Origin: Minisyncoccota bacterium
GTDB taxonomy: Bacteria; Patescibacteriota; Minisyncoccia; Phycocordibacterales; JACOZG01
Reading direction: 5' to 3'
NCBI GenBank assembly: GCA_036517595.1
Contig: DATDVJ010000032.1
Location: 1 to 50,091 of the forward strand
Length of the DNA: 50,091 nucleotides
Position numbers and translations under genes: made by a program. Each line of letters begins with the position of its first letter. The stretch's first letter is position 1. This document shows, one piece after another, positions 40,628-49,962 of this stretch. The notes below the pieces were generated by a model that was not told the DNA's origin, did not search any database, and saw only the letters and a program-made list of their open reading frames with translations.

Positions 40628-40883
40628 GCTTCCAGTTCCACCACGAACCGACTTCCCTTCCCCTTACCATCCGATTCTGCCCATATCCTCCCATTGTGCG
40701 CCTCAACGATTTGCTTGGCCACATAGAGGCCGAGACCAGTGCCAGTGATATTGACCTTGCCGGCATCATCGGCACGAGTAAATTTCTGAAAGAGTTTCGG
40801 GATCACTTCGGCTGGAATACCCACACCAGTATCAGCTACTTCCAATCTGATTTTATTCTCTATTTTACTTAATCTAACCTTGA
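40609..40883 (-). pseudogene. 3' remnant of a sensor histidine kinase (HATPase_c end only)
   Basis: It encodes ...KVRLSKIENKIRLEVADTGVGIPAEVIPKLFQKFTRADDAGKVNITGTGLGLYVAKQIVEAHNGRIWAESDGKGKGSRFVVEL. That is nearly identical to the C-terminus of the 44819..46450 kinase. It has no start codon and no HisKA domain. Confidence 0.85.
40655..40883. repeat. Copy A of a 229-bp direct repeat (kinase 3' end)
   Basis: Hand alignment to 44844..45072 gives 13 mismatches in 229 nt with no indels. Confidence 0.9.
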
Positions 40884-44818: not shown

Positions 44819-46450
44819 TTATAACTCCACAACAAACCTTGACCCCTTCCCCTTACCATCCGATTCTGCCCATATCCTCCCATTGTGCGCCTCAACGATT
44901 TGCTTGGCCACATAGAGACCGAGGCCGGTGCCGGAAATGTTGACCTTGCCGGCATCATCGGCACGAGTAAACTTTTGAAAAAGTTTGGGAATCACTTCGG
45001 CTGGAATACCCACACCAGTATCAGCTACTTCCAATCTGATTTTATTCTCTATTTTACTTAATCTAACTTTGATCTCACCCTTTGGGGTATATTTGATGGC
45101 ATTATCAATTAAGTTGCCGACCACTTGCGAGAGTTTGCCCGAATCGCCCACCAACTTATAATCTCCCGCCGGATCGGCCTCGAACGAGAACTGCAATCCC
45201 TTCTTTTCAATATTGACTCTCAACTCCTTAGATACATTCTCGACCAGTTCTTTAAAATTAAGCTCGCTTTGATCATACTTCATCGTTCCTAATTCGATTC
45301 GCGTGATATTCAAGAAATCCTCAATCACCTTAACCAATTTCTCACTGGACTGAAAAATGATGTCCACCGCCCCGCGCGCTTTCTCCTCCACCGGACCGAA
45401 GGAGTTCTCCAGCACCATTGAGGCGTAACCCTTGATCGCCGTGAGCGGGCTACGCAGTTGATGCGTCGCCATAGACACGAATTCCGTCTTCAGCTTGTCC
45501 AATTCCTGCAATTTCTCATTGGCCACCCACAATTTATCATTGGACTTGTTCAACTCCTTCATCAGCCCCTCAACTCTCTCCCGCAAAGCGACTTCCTTCT
45601 GGACGCTACGGATGATGAAAATACCAACCACCACTAAAACTACAAACAAACCACCATTTAATACCCCGTCTTGCCAACGGTCAGAGAGCAAGGTTCGCAC
45701 CAAAACTAATATCCACAGTGCGAATACCAATAACTCAGTTGCAATAACTTTCACATTAAATAACCCGTGTTTGAGAATAGCGTAAGAAGTAAAGATGATG
45801 AAAGGTAGAGTAAAAATTGGAGCATAAGAAACGAAAAATGAATTATTGAAAACAACAGGAAGAATAAGATTGAAAAGAATGATAAGCATGTAAGTTATAG
45901 AAGTACCTATTAGTACATCTCGTAATTGGTCTCTCTCAACATATTTTGCTTTTCTAGTTTTACGAAACAATAAAATTATTCCACCTAAAACTAAACTTAG
46001 TATAACTGGGACGAACAAGAAAATTCCTGGTCCATATGCCAACTTGGATATTGTCCCGTCGAGATTAAACTCCAGTATCCGATTAAAAACCAGGGGAGTT
46101 AAACTTAAGACAGAAGTAAAAACTGTGATGGGAAAAATACAAAATTTGTAAAACCAAGAAAATTTTATATTTTCATTTGGAAATACATAGAATAACCTGA
46201 GGAGGACAAAAGAATACCAAACTGCCAAAAAAATAGTTATTTTTAAAAAATTAAAAGAAATTTCTCCCGGTAAACCATTGAGACTTAAATAATTAAAAAT
46301 ACTATATCCAATTGCTATTAAAACGAAGAGTAGAAAGGTTTTATTTGTTATACTTTTTCTGTTATTTAAAAACACAACAAAACCCAAGATCGTAATGGTT
46401 ATGACCGCGAGACCAACCCAAAGCAAATCAAGATTTTTCAAGATGTCCAT
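44819..46450 (-). CDS. Sensor histidine kinase with a large polytopic N-terminal sensor
   Basis: About 8 TM helices, a coiled linker, HisKA SMATHQLRSPLTAI, and HATPase_c (N box DNAIKYT, G boxes DTGVGI and GTGLGL). Start set to MDILKNL (46450). No response regulator is present in the window. Confidence 0.9.
   Translation of the reverse strand: MDILKNLDLLWVGLAVITITILGFVVFLNNRKSITNKTFLLFVLIAIGYSIFNYLSLNGLPGEISFNFLKITIFLAVWYSFVLLRLFYVFPNENIKFSWFYKFCIFPITVFTSVLSLTPLVFNRILEFNLDGTISKLAYGPGIFLFVPVILSLVLGGIILLFRKTRKAKYVERDQLRDVLIGTSITYMLIILFNLILPVVFNNSFFVSYAPIFTLPFIIFTSYAILKHGLFNVKVIATELLVFALWILVLVRTLLSDRWQDGVLNGGLFVVLVVVGIFIIRSVQKEVALRERVEGLMKELNKSNDKLWVANEKLQELDKLKTEFVSMATHQLRSPLTAIKGYASMVLENSFGPVEEKARGAVDIIFQSSEKLVKVIEDFLNITRIELGTMKYDQSELNFKELVENVSKELRVNIEKKGLQFSFEADPAGDYKLVGDSGKLSQVVGNLIDNAIKYTPKGEIKVRLSKIENKIRLEVADTGVGIPAEVIPKLFQKFTRADDAGKVNISGTGLGLYVAKQIVEAHNGRIWAESDGKGKGSRFVVEL
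44844..45072. repeat. Copy B of the 229-bp direct repeat (inside the intact kinase gene)
   Basis: See copy A. The offset between copies is 4189 bp. Confidence 0.9.
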
Positions 46451-46522
46451 TGGGGTATAGTATAACACATCATAATTTTCTCAATTTAACTATCGCTTCA
46501 TGCAGGATATTCCTAAATATAT

Positions 46523-47116
46523 TCATTGACTTTCATTGCCCTCTTTTATTTTTTCAAGAACTTCAGAGAAGGTTTTCCCGGCTGAATAAATATCCCAGAT
46601 AATTTTTCTCCACGTCTGTTCTTCTGGCACCAGATGTCCCTTATCATTACTCCACATTTGAAAACCTCGGTGATCATTAAGGATGACTGGTATTGCCTCT
46701 TTGATATTGCGCGGCAACTCTTCCGGTTGAAAATAATGGCAAAGTTCATGCATAATTACTCTGATTCTTTCGGCCGGATTATTACCAAACAAGGGAGCAG
46801 AGAACCACCTTTTTTGATTATCTGGCGAATAATTGTAAGGAAAAATGTCTAATCTAGTAAAAAAACAGGTGAGTGTCGGCTCGGCGATCTCAATTTCATA
46901 AAAAGACCCAAGTTTATCGTAAAAATTTCGCTCAACTTTTTTCCATTCGTTTTCTATATTTTTTATATGACTGGTAACAAAACGCTCGTTAATATCAACA
47001 AGAACTCCATTTATTTCGGCTTGAATCAACGACAAAACTTCCGGTGATTTATTTGGCCTAATATAGGCATCAAATATTTCGACTTCTTTGCTTCTATCGT
47101 AGGTAAATAGAATCAT
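46523..47116 (-). CDS. Hypothetical HExxH-motif protein (possible zinc metallopeptidase)
   Basis: VIMHELCHYF contains HExxH. TATAAT sits 6 nt upstream of the ATG with no SD. It is the last gene of the RiPP-like cluster. Confidence 0.5.
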   Translation of the reverse strand: MILFTYDRSKEVEIFDAYIRPNKSPEVLSLIQAEINGVLVDINERFVTSHIKNIENEWKKVERNFYDKLGSFYEIEIAEPTLTCFFTRLDIFPYNYSPDNQKRWFSAPLFGNNPAERIRVIMHELCHYFQPEELPRNIKEAIPVILNDHRGFQMWSNDKGHLVPEEQTWRKIIWDIYSAGKTFSEVLEKIKEGNESQ

Positions 47117-47130
47117 ATTTACATTATAGA

Positions 47131-47162
47131 TAAAAAGGAGGCCAGTTACAATTCTGGCCTCC
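47131..47162 (-). terminator. Strong Rho-independent terminator after the peptide ORF
   Basis: On the minus strand, GGAGGCCAG-AATTGTAA-CTGGCCTCC is followed by TTTTTAT. Confidence 0.8.
47140..47157. repeat. 18-nt hairpin repeat GGCCAGTTACAATTCTGG, copy 1 (core of the terminator)
   Basis: Exact 18-mer shared with 48679..48696. Confidence 0.85.
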
Positions 47163-47191
47163 CGTTGTCGACAGCGATCTTTCGTATTCTG

Positions 47192-47338
47192 TTATACATT
47201 TCCGGTATAGCAATCACACGAGTGATCACTCTCGGTGTCGCAGTCTGAGTCGCATTCACTCTGAGATGCTTCTACTTCAGACTGTTGCCCGACCTTAATT
47301 TCCTCAAGAGTTTCCTCAAGAAGAGTCAGGGTCATCAT
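47192..47338 (-). CDS. Untracked 48-aa candidate RiPP precursor peptide: MMTLTLLEETLEEIKVGQQSEVEASQSECDSDCDTESDHSCDCYTGNV
   Basis: Translated by hand. The ATG at 47338 is preceded by GGAGGTG 6 nt upstream. It overlaps the rSAM 3' end by 23 nt in another frame, has TAA at 47192-47194, and is followed by the terminator. The N-terminal half is leader-like and helical; the C-terminal half is Cys/Asp/Ser/Thr-rich. Confidence 0.6.
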   Translation of the reverse strand: MMTLTLLEETLEEIKVGQQSEVEASQSECDSDCDTESDHSCDCYTGNV

Positions 47339-48665
47339 GGGCACCACCTCCTTTCTTTTCTTTGATCAGACCTTCTTTGGATAATCTCACGATCAGTTTT
47401 TTTGCCTCATTTTTTGTGGCCCCCATCTTTATTAACGTTGAGACACTCACGGCATCATCCTTTTTGATGAGGGCAGACAAGGCATCGAAAGCTGATTTAT
47501 CCAATAACGTTTGGCCAGCCTCGGCCTTAACTAAGATACCACCAAAGACTTCCTGTCTCAAGATGATGGGGTGGACAAATGAAAAAAGGTGGTTCTCTCC
47601 AATCACTGGGTCAAGCCTATTGATGAGGACAGTTTTAACACCTTGTGGGCCAATACAGTGGTAATCCTGACCGTTGCTTGAATTTGCTTCTTCAACTTGG
47701 CAACCACCAGTACAAAACTTCACATGCGGGCAGGCTTTGCAGCGCTCGACATATTGTCTGTCTCGGCAATCCACCATTCTTGCCCAGGTTTTTTCGAGGC
47801 CTTCTTCTAAGACATTCCCGTATTTAAGGGCTGAATGCCCACATGGTCTAATTTCTCCGTTTGCCCCAATTGACGCACTAGTCACACCGGCGGTACATTT
47901 CCGTCTGGCGAGATATCGATATTTTTCGACATCTCCTAAGGCACACCAGGGGTAGTGCTCAAACACATCGACATCATAACCCCATTTCTTCTTGAGTTCG
48001 TAGAGTGCTGTTAAACTGTCTCTCAGTTCTCGAATAGAAATAAGATTCTGGGAAAAGCCAATGGCGATTGGCCCTGGAGCACAAGCCCGAGTCGCTCCGA
48101 ATTTTGCCGCACCCCAACTTCCAACCAGATCGCCAGTGTCCCTTAGCGTAGAGATATTCCATTTTGTCAGAACCATGTTGACGAGCACCCGGAAGCCCAT
48201 CTTGATCGCCAGCTTTATATTATTTGTTGCTAGTTGCCAACTACCAGGAATTTGAGTTATGCCATCATGCACCCGTGCGTTGCTTGAGAGCAAGCTAGTC
48301 ATGATGCTGGTGATTCCCACTGCTCTTAATTGTAAACCTAGGCGCTCACTAAAAAGCGTTAGGTTCGAATTTAGGGTTATTCCCATGCCTGATTCTTTGC
48401 ATCTTCTAATTAGATGCAGTGATAAATCTGGCACGACTAGAGGTTCGCCACCGGTTACCACTACCCTAATGATTTGATTTTTCTCGAATTCTTCAACAAG
48501 CCGATCCAGATCCCGAAGAGACATTGTTTTGCGTGGAGAATCTTCGTGTCGGAAGTAGTTGTAACAATGTCTACAGATGTGATTGCAACACTCGGTAATT
48601 TCCACCTGAACGTTTATCGGACTTTTCAATGTCCTAAACATGACAACTTTATCCTTTCTTTTCAA
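47316..48665 (-). CDS. Radical SAM / SPASM-domain peptide-modifying enzyme with a C-terminal PqqD-like (RRE) domain
   Basis: C27-x3-C31-x2-C34 (CNHICRHC) and GGEPL. SPASM motif C309-x2-C-x5-C-x3-C322 (CKACPHVKFCTGGC) plus upstream Cys257 and Cys275. Residues about 360-435 look like a wHTH RRE. The start is TTG 48665 or ATG 48641. Confidence 0.9.
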   Translation of the reverse strand: MKRKDKVVMFRTLKSPINVQVEITECCNHICRHCYNYFRHEDSPRKTMSLRDLDRLVEEFEKNQIIRVVVTGGEPLVVPDLSLHLIRRCKESGMGITLNSNLTLFSERLGLQLRAVGITSIMTSLLSSNARVHDGITQIPGSWQLATNNIKLAIKMGFRVLVNMVLTKWNISTLRDTGDLVGSWGAAKFGATRACAPGPIAIGFSQNLISIRELRDSLTALYELKKKWGYDVDVFEHYPWCALGDVEKYRYLARRKCTAGVTSASIGANGEIRPCGHSALKYGNVLEEGLEKTWARMVDCRDRQYVERCKACPHVKFCTGGCQVEEANSSNGQDYHCIGPQGVKTVLINRLDPVIGENHLFSFVHPIILRQEVFGGILVKAEAGQTLLDKSAFDALSALIKKDDAVSVSTLIKMGATKNEAKKLIVRLSKEGLIKEKKGGGAHDDPDSS

Positions 48666-48678
48666 AGACCCAATCTCC

Positions 48679-48696
48679 GGCCAGTTACAATTCTGG
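48679..48696. repeat. 18-nt hairpin repeat GGCCAGTTACAATTCTGG, copy 2 (5' of the rSAM gene)
   Basis: Exact 18-mer, lying 14 nt upstream of the TTG at 48665. There is no U-tract here. Confidence 0.85.
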
Positions 48697-48734: not shown

Positions 48735-49682
48735 TCAATGATAAATTCTCAAATACCCATCCATATAAATTTTAGTCTGCCAACCAGGAGTATTATTTGA
48801 TCTTAACTCTTCTTTACTTGGGTCACGCAAAAAACTTAGCAGTGCACCGTTTAGTAGTACCGGACGATTTTTCCAATTCGCTTTGATGGAACCAAGATTA
48901 ATTATCCAGCAATTTAAGTCATCATTTTCTATTCCCCTTTTCGCCACTATTTCGATCATTCGATCCAGTTTGATTTTAAGATTATCAGGCAAATGATGTT
49001 TAAACTTAGAGTGATACGCTAGATCAATATTTTTTTGTCCAAAGTATGTTTCAAGTTTGACCGCATCACCATTGATTAAGACTACCGTATATTGTTCATT
49101 TTGAAATTCTTGCTTTAACTGATTTACTTTACCTTGGTCGAGGTTGCTAATTCGAAACAATTTAATTTTCAGATCGACTAAATTCTCATTTGCAATATCG
49201 AGTGAAGTATTGCTATTATCAATGCCAAAGAAAATAATTTTTTGGTTATTCCCCTTTTCCCGTAGTTTAATAATTAGTTGTCTCTCAATCTCCATCGAAC
49301 CAGAACCAATACTAACGAGAATCAAGTGCCGTCCGGGCTGATTCAGCTCTGCAATTTGTTTTAAAATCTCTTTTCTGATTCGACCCAAAACGTCTGGGAA
49401 CTTCCATTTTTCAATTTCGAGTAATTCTTTCTGAAGCATTCGCTCCCACTTACCGTTACTTAAATGAAAATCGGAAAGTTCCAACAGTCGTTTACCATCC
49501 AGAGTAGGACGCACCTTTCTGAACCAATGCCAAAAATCACGGAAGCGATACAGAGAACGAAAAAAGTTTAGATTGGCTTCGAGGGCATACGAATTTTCAC
49601 ACTGGCCGCTTTTCTTGTGTATTTCAAGATCAACAATGATCTCGTCAAGTAATTGTTTTCTGACCAAATATTTACTATTCAT
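48735..49682 (-). CDS. Putative class I SAM-dependent methyltransferase
   Basis: Motif I-like LILVSIGSGSMEIE, post-I acidic IIFFGIDNS, and motif II-like VVLINGDAV. The assignment rests on motif resemblance only. Confidence 0.5.
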   Translation of the reverse strand: MNSKYLVRKQLLDEIIVDLEIHKKSGQCENSYALEANLNFFRSLYRFRDFWHWFRKVRPTLDGKRLLELSDFHLSNGKWERMLQKELLEIEKWKFPDVLGRIRKEILKQIAELNQPGRHLILVSIGSGSMEIERQLIIKLREKGNNQKIIFFGIDNSNTSLDIANENLVDLKIKLFRISNLDQGKVNQLKQEFQNEQYTVVLINGDAVKLETYFGQKNIDLAYHSKFKHHLPDNLKIKLDRMIEIVAKRGIENDDLNCWIINLGSIKANWKNRPVLLNGALLSFLRDPSKEELRSNNTPGWQTKIYMDGYLRIYH

Positions 49683-49843
49683 ATTCTAAACGAACTCCAA
49701 AAGATGGTCAGGATTGAGAAATAAAAGAAACTCCGATTAGTGATACTGCCGCGGTTACTCAACAAAACCGTGAAGCCCAAGACGCCAATACCGGCGATCA
49801 CCACGCCGACCGAAAGCAGATCAAGATTTTTCAGGATGTCCAT
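49679..49843 (-). pseudogene. 54-codon N-terminal fragment of a paralogous sensor kinase, ATGA-coupled to the methyltransferase start
   Basis: MDILKNLDLLSVGVVIAGIGVLGFTVLLSNRGSITNRSFFYFSILTIFWSSFRI compares with the kinase N-terminus MDILKNLDLLWVGLAVITITILGFVVFLNNRKSITNKTF... The upstream TATAAT and 8-nt spacer are also conserved. Its TGA (49679-49681) overlaps the ATG at 49680-49682. Confidence 0.6.
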
Positions 49844-49962
49844 TAGGATAGATTATAACAAGGTTGACAAAAATATCCAACTTGATAACATCAGTTCTAG
49901 AAAGTCGAGATCGGCTCGATGGGGTTTGCTCTTTACTACTGCGACGAAAGGGGGTGATAACA

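Follow-up and report, generated by a model that had tools for sequence, protein, structure and literature searches.

A conserved short peptide gene overlapping the 3′ end of a radical SAM/SPASM enzyme gene in Patescibacteria, and its probable role as the substrate of that enzyme

The 50,091-nt stretch analysed here (the window; contig DATDVJ010000032.1 of assembly GCA_036517595.1, from a Minisyncoccota bacterium) carries a gene for a radical S-adenosylmethionine (radical SAM) enzyme with a SPASM domain. An earlier note on this DNA had proposed that a 48-codon open reading frame (ORF) overlapping the 3′ end of that gene is a genuine precursor-like peptide gene linked to the maturase, a proposal now supported by the intact ORF and Shine-Dalgarno sequence found in homologous loci. 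Judged from the pattern of change between these loci, the 48-codon frame is a real, conserved gene under purifying selection, and we propose, with a probability of about 0.72, that its product serves as substrate for the adjacent radical SAM enzyme. Thioether chemistry on the cysteines of the peptide, suggested by analogy with ranthipeptides and sactipeptides, carries roughly half of that probability.

Locus retrieval from genome and metagenome collections yielded 18 loci with most or all of a close radical SAM homologue and three fragments. Further loci were added through exact-protein look-ups, and the profile for the close-locus search was built from the 17 closest radical SAM sequences. 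Downstream sequence is available for 17 close loci, and in 15 of them an ORF of 37–52 residues starts between −19 and +13 nt from the stop codon of the radical SAM gene; all 15 homologous loci listed have a GGAGG-like Shine-Dalgarno sequence ahead of the peptide start. L014 and L015, which seem to be exceptions, encode the same peptide one gene further on, behind a gene for an HExxH protein, an arrangement that characterizes one subclade (with L028 and L029). Absence of the peptide from these two loci was therefore rejected in favour of relocation, and the peptide is present in every sufficiently complete close locus (∼17 distinct loci, all from the candidate phyla radiation (CPR)/Patescibacteria). 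The earlier note had described a precursor downstream of its maturase as a less common arrangement; the position is confirmed, but within this family the downstream location is the rule.

Alignment of the family peptides (A3 and A6) reveals two conserved blocks, which fits the bipartite leader and core division proposed previously. The N-terminal block resembles M-x-x-L-S-L-Y-E-D and reads MMTLTLLEE in the window, where residues ∼3–9 (TLTLLEE) align to the LSLYED of the family; here L4 and E8 are close to invariant (A6). The core block has the form C-x2-D-C-[DNH]-T-[DE]-x-D-H, with C29, D32, C33, D38 and H39 invariant in 24 sequences and T35 present in ≥90% of them. The linker that joins the blocks varies in length and sequence, and the peptide tails are also variable. 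In the window, the core reads C29-D-S-D32-C33-D-T35-E-S-D38-H39, the C-terminal end is …CDCYTGNV, and the 48 residues include 13 acidic residues, four cysteines and one histidine. Several details of the original description changed. Three of the four cysteines occur in the S-x-C-D or S-C-D contexts described for all four, whereas the last lies in D-C-Y; the S-x-C-D spacing that had been emphasized gives way to the family signature C-x2-D-C-x-T-[DE]-x-D-H; of the four cysteines only the first two, C29 and C33, are conserved in the family; the 24-residue core contains seven acidic residues rather than eight; and the N-terminus of the leader, expected to be variable, is conserved.

The pattern of change in the peptide gene is codon-periodic. 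Codon analysis of eight pairs gave ratios of non-synonymous to synonymous polymorphism (pN/pS) of 0.08–0.41, and comparison with a 92%-identical relative (L027) showed four synonymous and no non-synonymous changes between C29 and N47. The motif is retained even though the close-locus peptides diverge by 40–60% at the amino-acid level. Loss of the intact ORF from homologous loci, or drift independent of codon position, had been named beforehand as signs of non-coding sequence; the loci instead retain the ORF with its Shine-Dalgarno sequence, and the pN/pS values show no such drift. An RNA element as the explanation of the conservation was likewise rejected, as no Rfam match was found anywhere in the window.

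A profile of the peptide, searched exhaustively against 1.84 billion representative proteins, returned only 24 clusters, all of them short peptides of the same type. When all 24 family peptides were compared with Pfam and NCBIfam at E values up to 10, nothing relevant was found (three spurious MSCRAMM-adhesin matches and a few chance Pfam matches), and the same comparison gave no membership in the SCIFF peptide family. Gene calls from JGI, ENA and Logan already contain the exact 48-residue product, under no name. The protein collection lists no NCBI source for it, while the adjoining radical SAM enzyme has an NCBI accession. The peptide gene is thus an example of the short precursors that are missing from deposited genome annotation.

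One locus (L017) presents a separate observation. At positions 1440–1750, where the contig ends, the last ∼40 nt of the radical SAM gene, the Shine-Dalgarno sequence and the first ∼17 peptide codons are repeated with 100% identity directly after the first peptide copy. The repeat may be a second precursor gene arranged in tandem; otherwise it is an artefact of the assembly.

The signals around the peptide gene in the window (Table 1) agree closely with those described in the earlier note. The reverse complement across the peptide start reads …AAAGGAGGTGGTGCCCATGATGACC…, with GGAGGTG 6 nt ahead of the ATGATG as claimed, and the 23-nt out-of-frame overlap with the radical SAM ORF, which ends at 47316, was also correct. 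A program-made list of ORFs has the peptide frame beginning at the in-frame GTG at 47347, giving 51 residues; since this GTG falls within the Shine-Dalgarno sequence, the ATG at 47338 is the likelier start. The terminator was said to follow 30 nt after the TAA; its hairpin and T-run are present, at a distance of 28 nt, and imply from their sequence that the radical SAM–peptide bicistron closes here. A strong hairpin with a T-run follows the peptide stop codon in nearly all homologous loci, although the hairpin sequences are unrelated.

Table 1. Features of the peptide cassette in the window, and peptides of distantly related loci
Feature	Coordinates	Strand	Details
Precursor-like peptide gene	47192..47338	minus	48 aa + stop, MMTLTLLEETLEEIKVGQQSEVEASQSECDSDCDTESDHSCDCYTGNV; ATG 47338-47336, TAA 47194-47192
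Shine-Dalgarno sequence GGAGGTG	47345..47351	minus	6-nt spacer, then ATGATG; within the last radical SAM codons (…K-K-G-G)
Intrinsic-terminator-like hairpin and T-run	47136..47163	minus	10 bp, 7 G-C pairs, 8-nt loop, then TTTTTATCT; 28 nt past TAA
Radical SAM/SPASM enzyme gene	47316..48665	minus	449 aa from TTG; Radical_SAM, Fer4_12 and SPASM (Pfam)
C-terminal domain of the enzyme, proposed leader-binding (recognition-element-like)	47343..47603	minus	aa ∼355-441; AlphaFold2 secondary structure
HExxH…E protein gene (family F1)	46523..47116	minus	197 aa, H123-E124-L-C-H127 … E140
TATAAT box	47123..47128	minus	6 nt ahead of the HExxH ATG; no Shine-Dalgarno sequence
18-nt hairpin word CCAGAATTGTAACTGGCC, two exact copies	48679..48696 and 47140..47157	minus	0.02 expected by chance
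L022 distant peptide core			…SCDKDCDCWDCVECDDY
L024 distant peptide core			…SSCDCDCHDCDDCVECDSCDCDCIDGD
L034 distant peptide core			…CVGCHCDCHECFCDCQDCY…
L032 distant peptide			MNELSLTY…CYDGGCRDTSRGCHGCEHD
L025 cassette one			487-aa radical SAM enzyme, Peptidase_MA_2 protein, 93-aa peptide ending …GSCDCDAGCFNCNCNCVIVCT
L025 cassette two			431-aa radical SAM enzyme, peptide ending …GGCYDGPECDECDPSPL, 220-aa HExxH protein

The neighbouring gene was identified correctly as a radical SAM gene: Pfam recognizes the Radical_SAM (PF04055, 4.9e-22), Fer4_12 and SPASM (5.1e-06, above its cutoff) domains in the product. The mechanically defined ORF begins at the TTG at 48665, while homologues begin at the equivalent of MFRTLKSP and the NCBI version (HEY4476862.1, 441 residues) starts at the ATG at 48641. 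This ATG is probably the true start, with the first eight codons (48641–48665) untranslated. The CX3CX2C motif of the radical SAM cluster (C27/C31/C34) is conserved in 88 homologues. The SPASM motif is complete (C257-x12-G270-x4-C275 … C309-x2-C312-x5-C318-x3-C322, plus C241), and seven cysteines of this region are invariant in the 88-sequence alignment (A4). The AlphaFold2 model (mean predicted local distance difference test (pLDDT) score of 93) finds its best Protein Data Bank (PDB) fold matches in SkfB and SuiB (E values of 1e-16 to 1e-14), followed by PqqE, TigE, anSME and ChlB, and SkfB is the best PDB match by both structure and sequence. Sequence motifs and predicted fold together show the enzyme to have the features of a radical SAM/SPASM peptide maturase.

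Beyond the SPASM region, the enzyme has a C-terminal domain that begins with a conserved R370-x-E372-x-F-G-G segment, in which the arginine, glutamate and glycine are invariant. The model predicts a β-β-β(-β)-α-α-α winged helix at residues ∼361–436, the arrangement seen in PqqD-like recognition elements (β3α3). From this predicted topology we infer that the domain resembles the recognition elements (RREs) of peptides made on ribosomes and modified after translation (RiPPs) and may bind the peptide leader. Two distant homologues of the enzyme carry a PqqD domain N-terminally. A profile of the C-terminal domain compared with PDB sequences matched only generic winged-helix proteins; the match to SuiB was sub-threshold and falls in the N-terminal region of SuiB.

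A third conserved member of the cassette, which the earlier note did not include, is the gene for the HExxH…E protein. Clustering of ORFs across the loci gave only two common families, the radical SAM enzyme (F0, 19 loci) and this ∼190-residue protein (F1, 16 loci), and among close relatives the loci show strict linkage of the enzyme, peptide and HExxH genes. The protein has 31 database homologues, all annotated as ‘hypothetical’, and a protein listed for a ‘Candidatus Paceibacterota’ metagenome-assembled genome has the same sequence as the window copy. Residues H123, E124, H127 and E140 are invariant in the 31 homologues (A5) and form a gluzincin-type signature. Sub-threshold Pfam matches were to PhageMetallopep, M78 and SprT, and the AlphaFold2 model has a pLDDT of 95. 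In profile–profile alignments with hhalign, the HExxH…E residues align in register with HExxH proteins beside distant cassettes in L004 (95% probability) and L025 (89%), and with the Peptidase_MA_2-type protein of L022 (60%). We propose from this signature that the protein is a zinc metallopeptidase that removes the peptide leader.

The HExxH gene appears to be transcribed separately. Scanning of the loci found a TAnAAT box 6–8 nt before the HExxH ATG, and no Shine-Dalgarno sequence, in 13 of them; the box reads TATAAT, at 6–7 nt, in the window, L002, L003, L005, L007, L009, L012, L013, L016, L021, L030 and L031, and TACAAT, at 8 nt, in L011. Since a hairpin with T-run is followed by such a box and no Shine-Dalgarno sequence, the cassette would comprise two units, a radical SAM–peptide bicistron and a separate HExxH transcript, the latter predicted from these signals to be leaderless and to start from its own promoter right after the terminator of the peptide gene.

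These features suggest the following sequence of events. The radical SAM and peptide genes would be co-transcribed and the peptide translated from the Shine-Dalgarno sequence that lies within the enzyme gene at its 3′ end. The leader motif (x-x-L-S/T-L-x-E-D/E) would then be bound by the RRE-like winged-helix domain of the enzyme, and radical chemistry involving two auxiliary SPASM clusters may cross-link C29 and C33 to nearby acceptors in the core. The core offers the invariant pairs C29-x2-D32 and C33-x4-D38, plus T35, and the likeliest products would be thioethers from cysteine sulfur to an Asp, Glu or Thr carbon, as in ranthipeptides or sactipeptides. There is precedent for such links: PapB links Cys-X3-Asp/Glu and accepts Cys-Xn-Asp/Glu thioethers with n=0–6 (PMC9413430), while Cys-Asp links are described in freyrasin, a Cγ-thioether in thermocellin and a Cys-Asn link in NxxcA (PMC8326336). 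Removal of the leader by the HExxH…E protein would leave a very acidic, cross-linked peptide of ∼15–25 residues, and the gene content of the cassette is compatible with a product that acts inside the cell, binds metal or resembles a cofactor.

Several results weigh against this proposal. The enzyme reached none of the curated NCBIfam cutoffs. Its top scores were to NirJ2 (108 bits) and AhbD (102 bits), for both of which the cutoff is 500, and the scores to PapB (NF047865, 47.5 against 340), AlbA (NF012164, 51.8 against 850), MftC (TIGR03962, 90.9 against 265) and PqqE (46 against 381) were also far below the cutoffs; no SCIFF maturase model was among the best 25 NCBIfam matches. Because every score lies far below its cutoff, the type of reaction cannot be read from homology, and SPASM enzymes also catalyse C–C or ether cross-linking, epimerization and cysteine oxidation. 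By these scores the enzyme does not belong to the PapB-type ranthipeptide or AlbA-type sactipeptide maturases. Identity with the heme d1 or heme b radical SAM enzymes (NirJ2 and AhbD) was rejected on the same scores and because the conserved neighbourhood holds no tetrapyrrole genes, and mycofactocin was rejected because of the low MftC score and a peptide that does not end in Gly-Val-Tyr. For the C-terminal domain, the Pfam scan gave weak winged helix-turn-helix matches, with PqqD in one of 88 members (E=0.014), and hhalign against the PqqD domains of two proteins (P0115 and P0117) was not significant; an RRE-like identity is suggested by its predicted topology. The HExxH protein falls in no Pfam, NCBIfam or PHROG family, and a Foldseek search of its model against the PDB found nothing significant (best E value of 0.3), the weak matches all being metalloproteases. 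Finally, ORF clustering of the loci revealed no conserved transporter or immunity gene in the cassette neighbourhood, and a role as an exported antimicrobial or classical bacteriocin is for that reason not supported.

The alternative that best survives these considerations, although we regard it as unlikely, is that the peptide is a true substrate of the radical SAM enzyme but undergoes other chemistry, such as a C–C or C–O cross-link, epimerization, cysteine oxidation or decarboxylation, to yield an intracellular redox cofactor or metal chelator of the PQQ (pyrroloquinoline quinone) or mycofactocin type that is not secreted. The lack of a conserved exporter or immunity gene and the minimal cassette in very small genomes are in keeping with such a product, both MftC and PqqE figure in the NCBIfam scores of the enzyme and PqqE among its fold matches, and the invariant D-H, the threonine and the extreme acidity could suit metal binding. 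Yet both scores are far below their cutoffs, the core has neither the Gly-Val-Tyr end of MftA nor the Glu/Tyr pair of PqqA, and its patchy distribution is unusual for an essential cofactor. Moreover, the sole invariant residues that are typical cross-link donors are the two cysteines, which lie beside Asp and Thr acceptors with precedent (PMC9413430, PMC8326336).

It is much less probable that the peptide is not a substrate at all but an unmodified Cys/Asp/His-rich accessory that binds a metal or Fe–S cluster, as a metallochaperone or regulator of the radical SAM enzyme. The composition is like that of short metal-binding peptides, and runs of CxC and CxxC occur in two distant relatives (L024 and L034). 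However, a conserved leader-like motif, a linker of variable length and a core form the typical layout of a RiPP precursor, the enzyme has an extra domain of peptide-binding type by its modelled topology, the HExxH protein is co-conserved, and two invariant cysteines are too few for the ligand set of a cluster. The remaining alternative, that the frame lies open by chance in the radical SAM 3′ untranslated region and has no product, could draw on the abundance of short ORFs in the window (89 of at least 30 residues in its last 10 kb, so that the 48-residue ORF by itself is not above chance) and on alternative frames of the same DNA that are open in several loci, but it is effectively refuted by the cross-locus comparison, because conservation rather than ORF size lifts the gene above chance: Shine-Dalgarno sequence, intact frame and motif persist in all close loci, pN/pS is well below 1 with almost entirely synonymous changes in the core, and the gene retains its identity when moved behind the HExxH gene.

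The radical SAM enzyme has ∼100 relatives with 30–58% identity, and every named source belongs to the CPR/Patescibacteria (Parcubacteria/Paceibacterota, WWE3, Collierbacteria and Daviesbacteria). Distant homologues (33–40% identity) in L022, L024, L025, L032, L033 and L034 also have small Cys/Asp-rich ORFs downstream, and most of the distant cassettes have HExxH or Peptidase_MA_2-type neighbours. In L025 (392–5333, from Daviesbacteria GW2011_GWA2_40_9), two divergent cassettes stand back to back. The most distant homologues examined, P0067 (L026) and P0062 (L035), with ∼30% identity, have neither a Cys-rich peptide nor an HExxH gene, and lie in a conserved sugar-biosynthesis context (DAHP_synth_1/CTP_transf_3/DHDPS/TylF). 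From this gene context they probably represent a non-RiPP sister subfamily, which places the boundary of the family at ∼30–35% identity of the radical SAM enzyme.

Other features of the surroundings are more local. A 315-residue methyltransferase-like ORF upstream of the radical SAM gene was considered as a cassette member and rejected, as it is not conserved in other loci. A 70-residue ORF (F2) with no Pfam match lies directly upstream of the radical SAM gene in five loci (L002 668–880, L009 1632–1844, L010 698–910, L030 2444–2656 and L031 340–552), and is a called gene in L030 and L031. These five belong to the subclade in which the peptides have …DCHTESDH[DN]CYDD at their ends, and F2 was found in no other locus. 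The two copies of the 18-nt hairpin word bracket the radical SAM–peptide unit in the window, one lying between a promoter-like site and the start of the radical SAM gene and the other forming the terminator stem. The word was not found in the other loci and is therefore not a feature of the family; its sequence and placement could reflect a site of shared regulation or RNA stability, or the trace of an insertion or duplication.

Parts of a histidine-kinase gene (44819–46468, minus strand) are repeated elsewhere in the window. A 247-nt copy of its 3′ end (40637–40883 versus 44826–45072) is 92% identical, and a 55-nt copy of its 5′ end (46413–46467 versus 49806–49860) is 85% identical and runs on as an ORF for a 54-residue N-terminal fragment (49679–49843, minus strand). 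The block of methyltransferase-like ORF, radical SAM, peptide and HExxH genes stands between the 5′ fragment and the full kinase gene, which suggests insertion or recombination between kinase paralogues. In L011, too, the cassette has a neighbouring kinase of this family, there on its opposite side.

A full-text literature search found no description of this family, only generic surveys of biosynthetic gene clusters, together with background on PapB and ranthipeptides; the surveys tally ‘ranthipeptide’ or RiPP clusters from metagenomes in which Patescibacteria are also present. The CPR/Patescibacteria have tiny genomes and very little secondary metabolism. Conservation of the cassette across Paceibacterota/Parcubacteria, WWE3, Collierbacteria and Daviesbacteria despite such genomes suggests that its function is indispensable in some niches. 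A tentative reading, which we hold to be possible but doubtful, is that the cassette represents a new RiPP class, seen so far only in the CPR/Patescibacteria, in which a radical SAM/SPASM enzyme with a C-terminal recognition domain installs an undescribed cross-link pattern on the core, and the acidic peptide serves these ultra-small episymbionts as a metal-binding, cofactor-like or host-interaction factor rather than as an antibiotic. The cassette offers a compact new putative pair of radical SAM enzyme and substrate whose core motif is sharply defined, possibly a new topology of cross-links, and an HExxH family that has a confidently predicted fold with no structural relative in the PDB. If the chemistry proves to be an ordinary Cys-Asp thioether, its value would be smaller, namely a further ranthipeptide-like family and a wider taxonomic range.

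The general logic of the cassette, that of a radical SAM/SPASM RiPP-type system, is familiar, while its enzyme, peptide and protease-like partner are all uncurated. The ranthipeptide systems (SCIFF family; freyrasin PapA/PapB, thermocellin CteA/CteB and NxxcA/NxxcB) share with it a short precursor whose leader is N-terminal and whose C-terminal core is rich in cysteine, a single radical SAM/SPASM maturase with a peptide-binding domain (here RRE-like by topology), and a core rich in Cys-Xn-Asp/Glu and Thr, which are documented acceptors (PMC9413430, PMC8326336). The present family differs in an enzyme that scores outside the PapB family, a peptide that matches no NCBIfam or Pfam model at a meaningful E value, a putative RRE at the C-terminus, only two invariant cysteines in a DCxT[DE]xDH core, a co-conserved HExxH protein, and an origin so far only in the CPR/Patescibacteria. 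Sactipeptide systems (subtilosin AlbA, SkfB and thurincin ThnB) likewise use a radical SAM/SPASM or twitch maturase that acts on cysteine donors, and SkfB is the top PDB match. However, the AlbA score is far below its cutoff, and sactipeptide clusters normally include transporter or immunity genes and an upstream precursor, whereas here the former are lacking and the precursor is downstream. QhpD is a radical SAM/SPASM enzyme that installs Cys-to-Asp/Glu thioethers in QhpC, a small polypeptide rich in Cys and Asp/Glu that becomes the γ-subunit of quinohemoprotein amine dehydrogenase. Unlike the peptide described here, QhpC is a periplasmic enzyme subunit encoded with qhpA and qhpB, genes that do not occur near the cassette, and no family-level similarity to QhpD appears among the best 25 NCBIfam matches of the enzyme. 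The mycofactocin (MftA/B/C) and PQQ (PqqA/D/E) systems resemble the cassette in combining a small peptide, a radical SAM/SPASM enzyme and a PqqD-type recognition element (here putative, by topology), and in having no exporter, an intracellular product and peptidase partners (the last two being proposed here), but they differ in scores far under the cutoffs, in their core residues and in a recognition domain that is separate rather than fused C-terminally. The system resembles ranthipeptide and sactipeptide systems in its logic but lies outside every curated family compared, and is distinguished by its predicted C-terminal recognition-type domain, HExxH…E partner, DCxT[DE]xDH core with two invariant cysteines, downstream precursor and restriction, so far, to the CPR.

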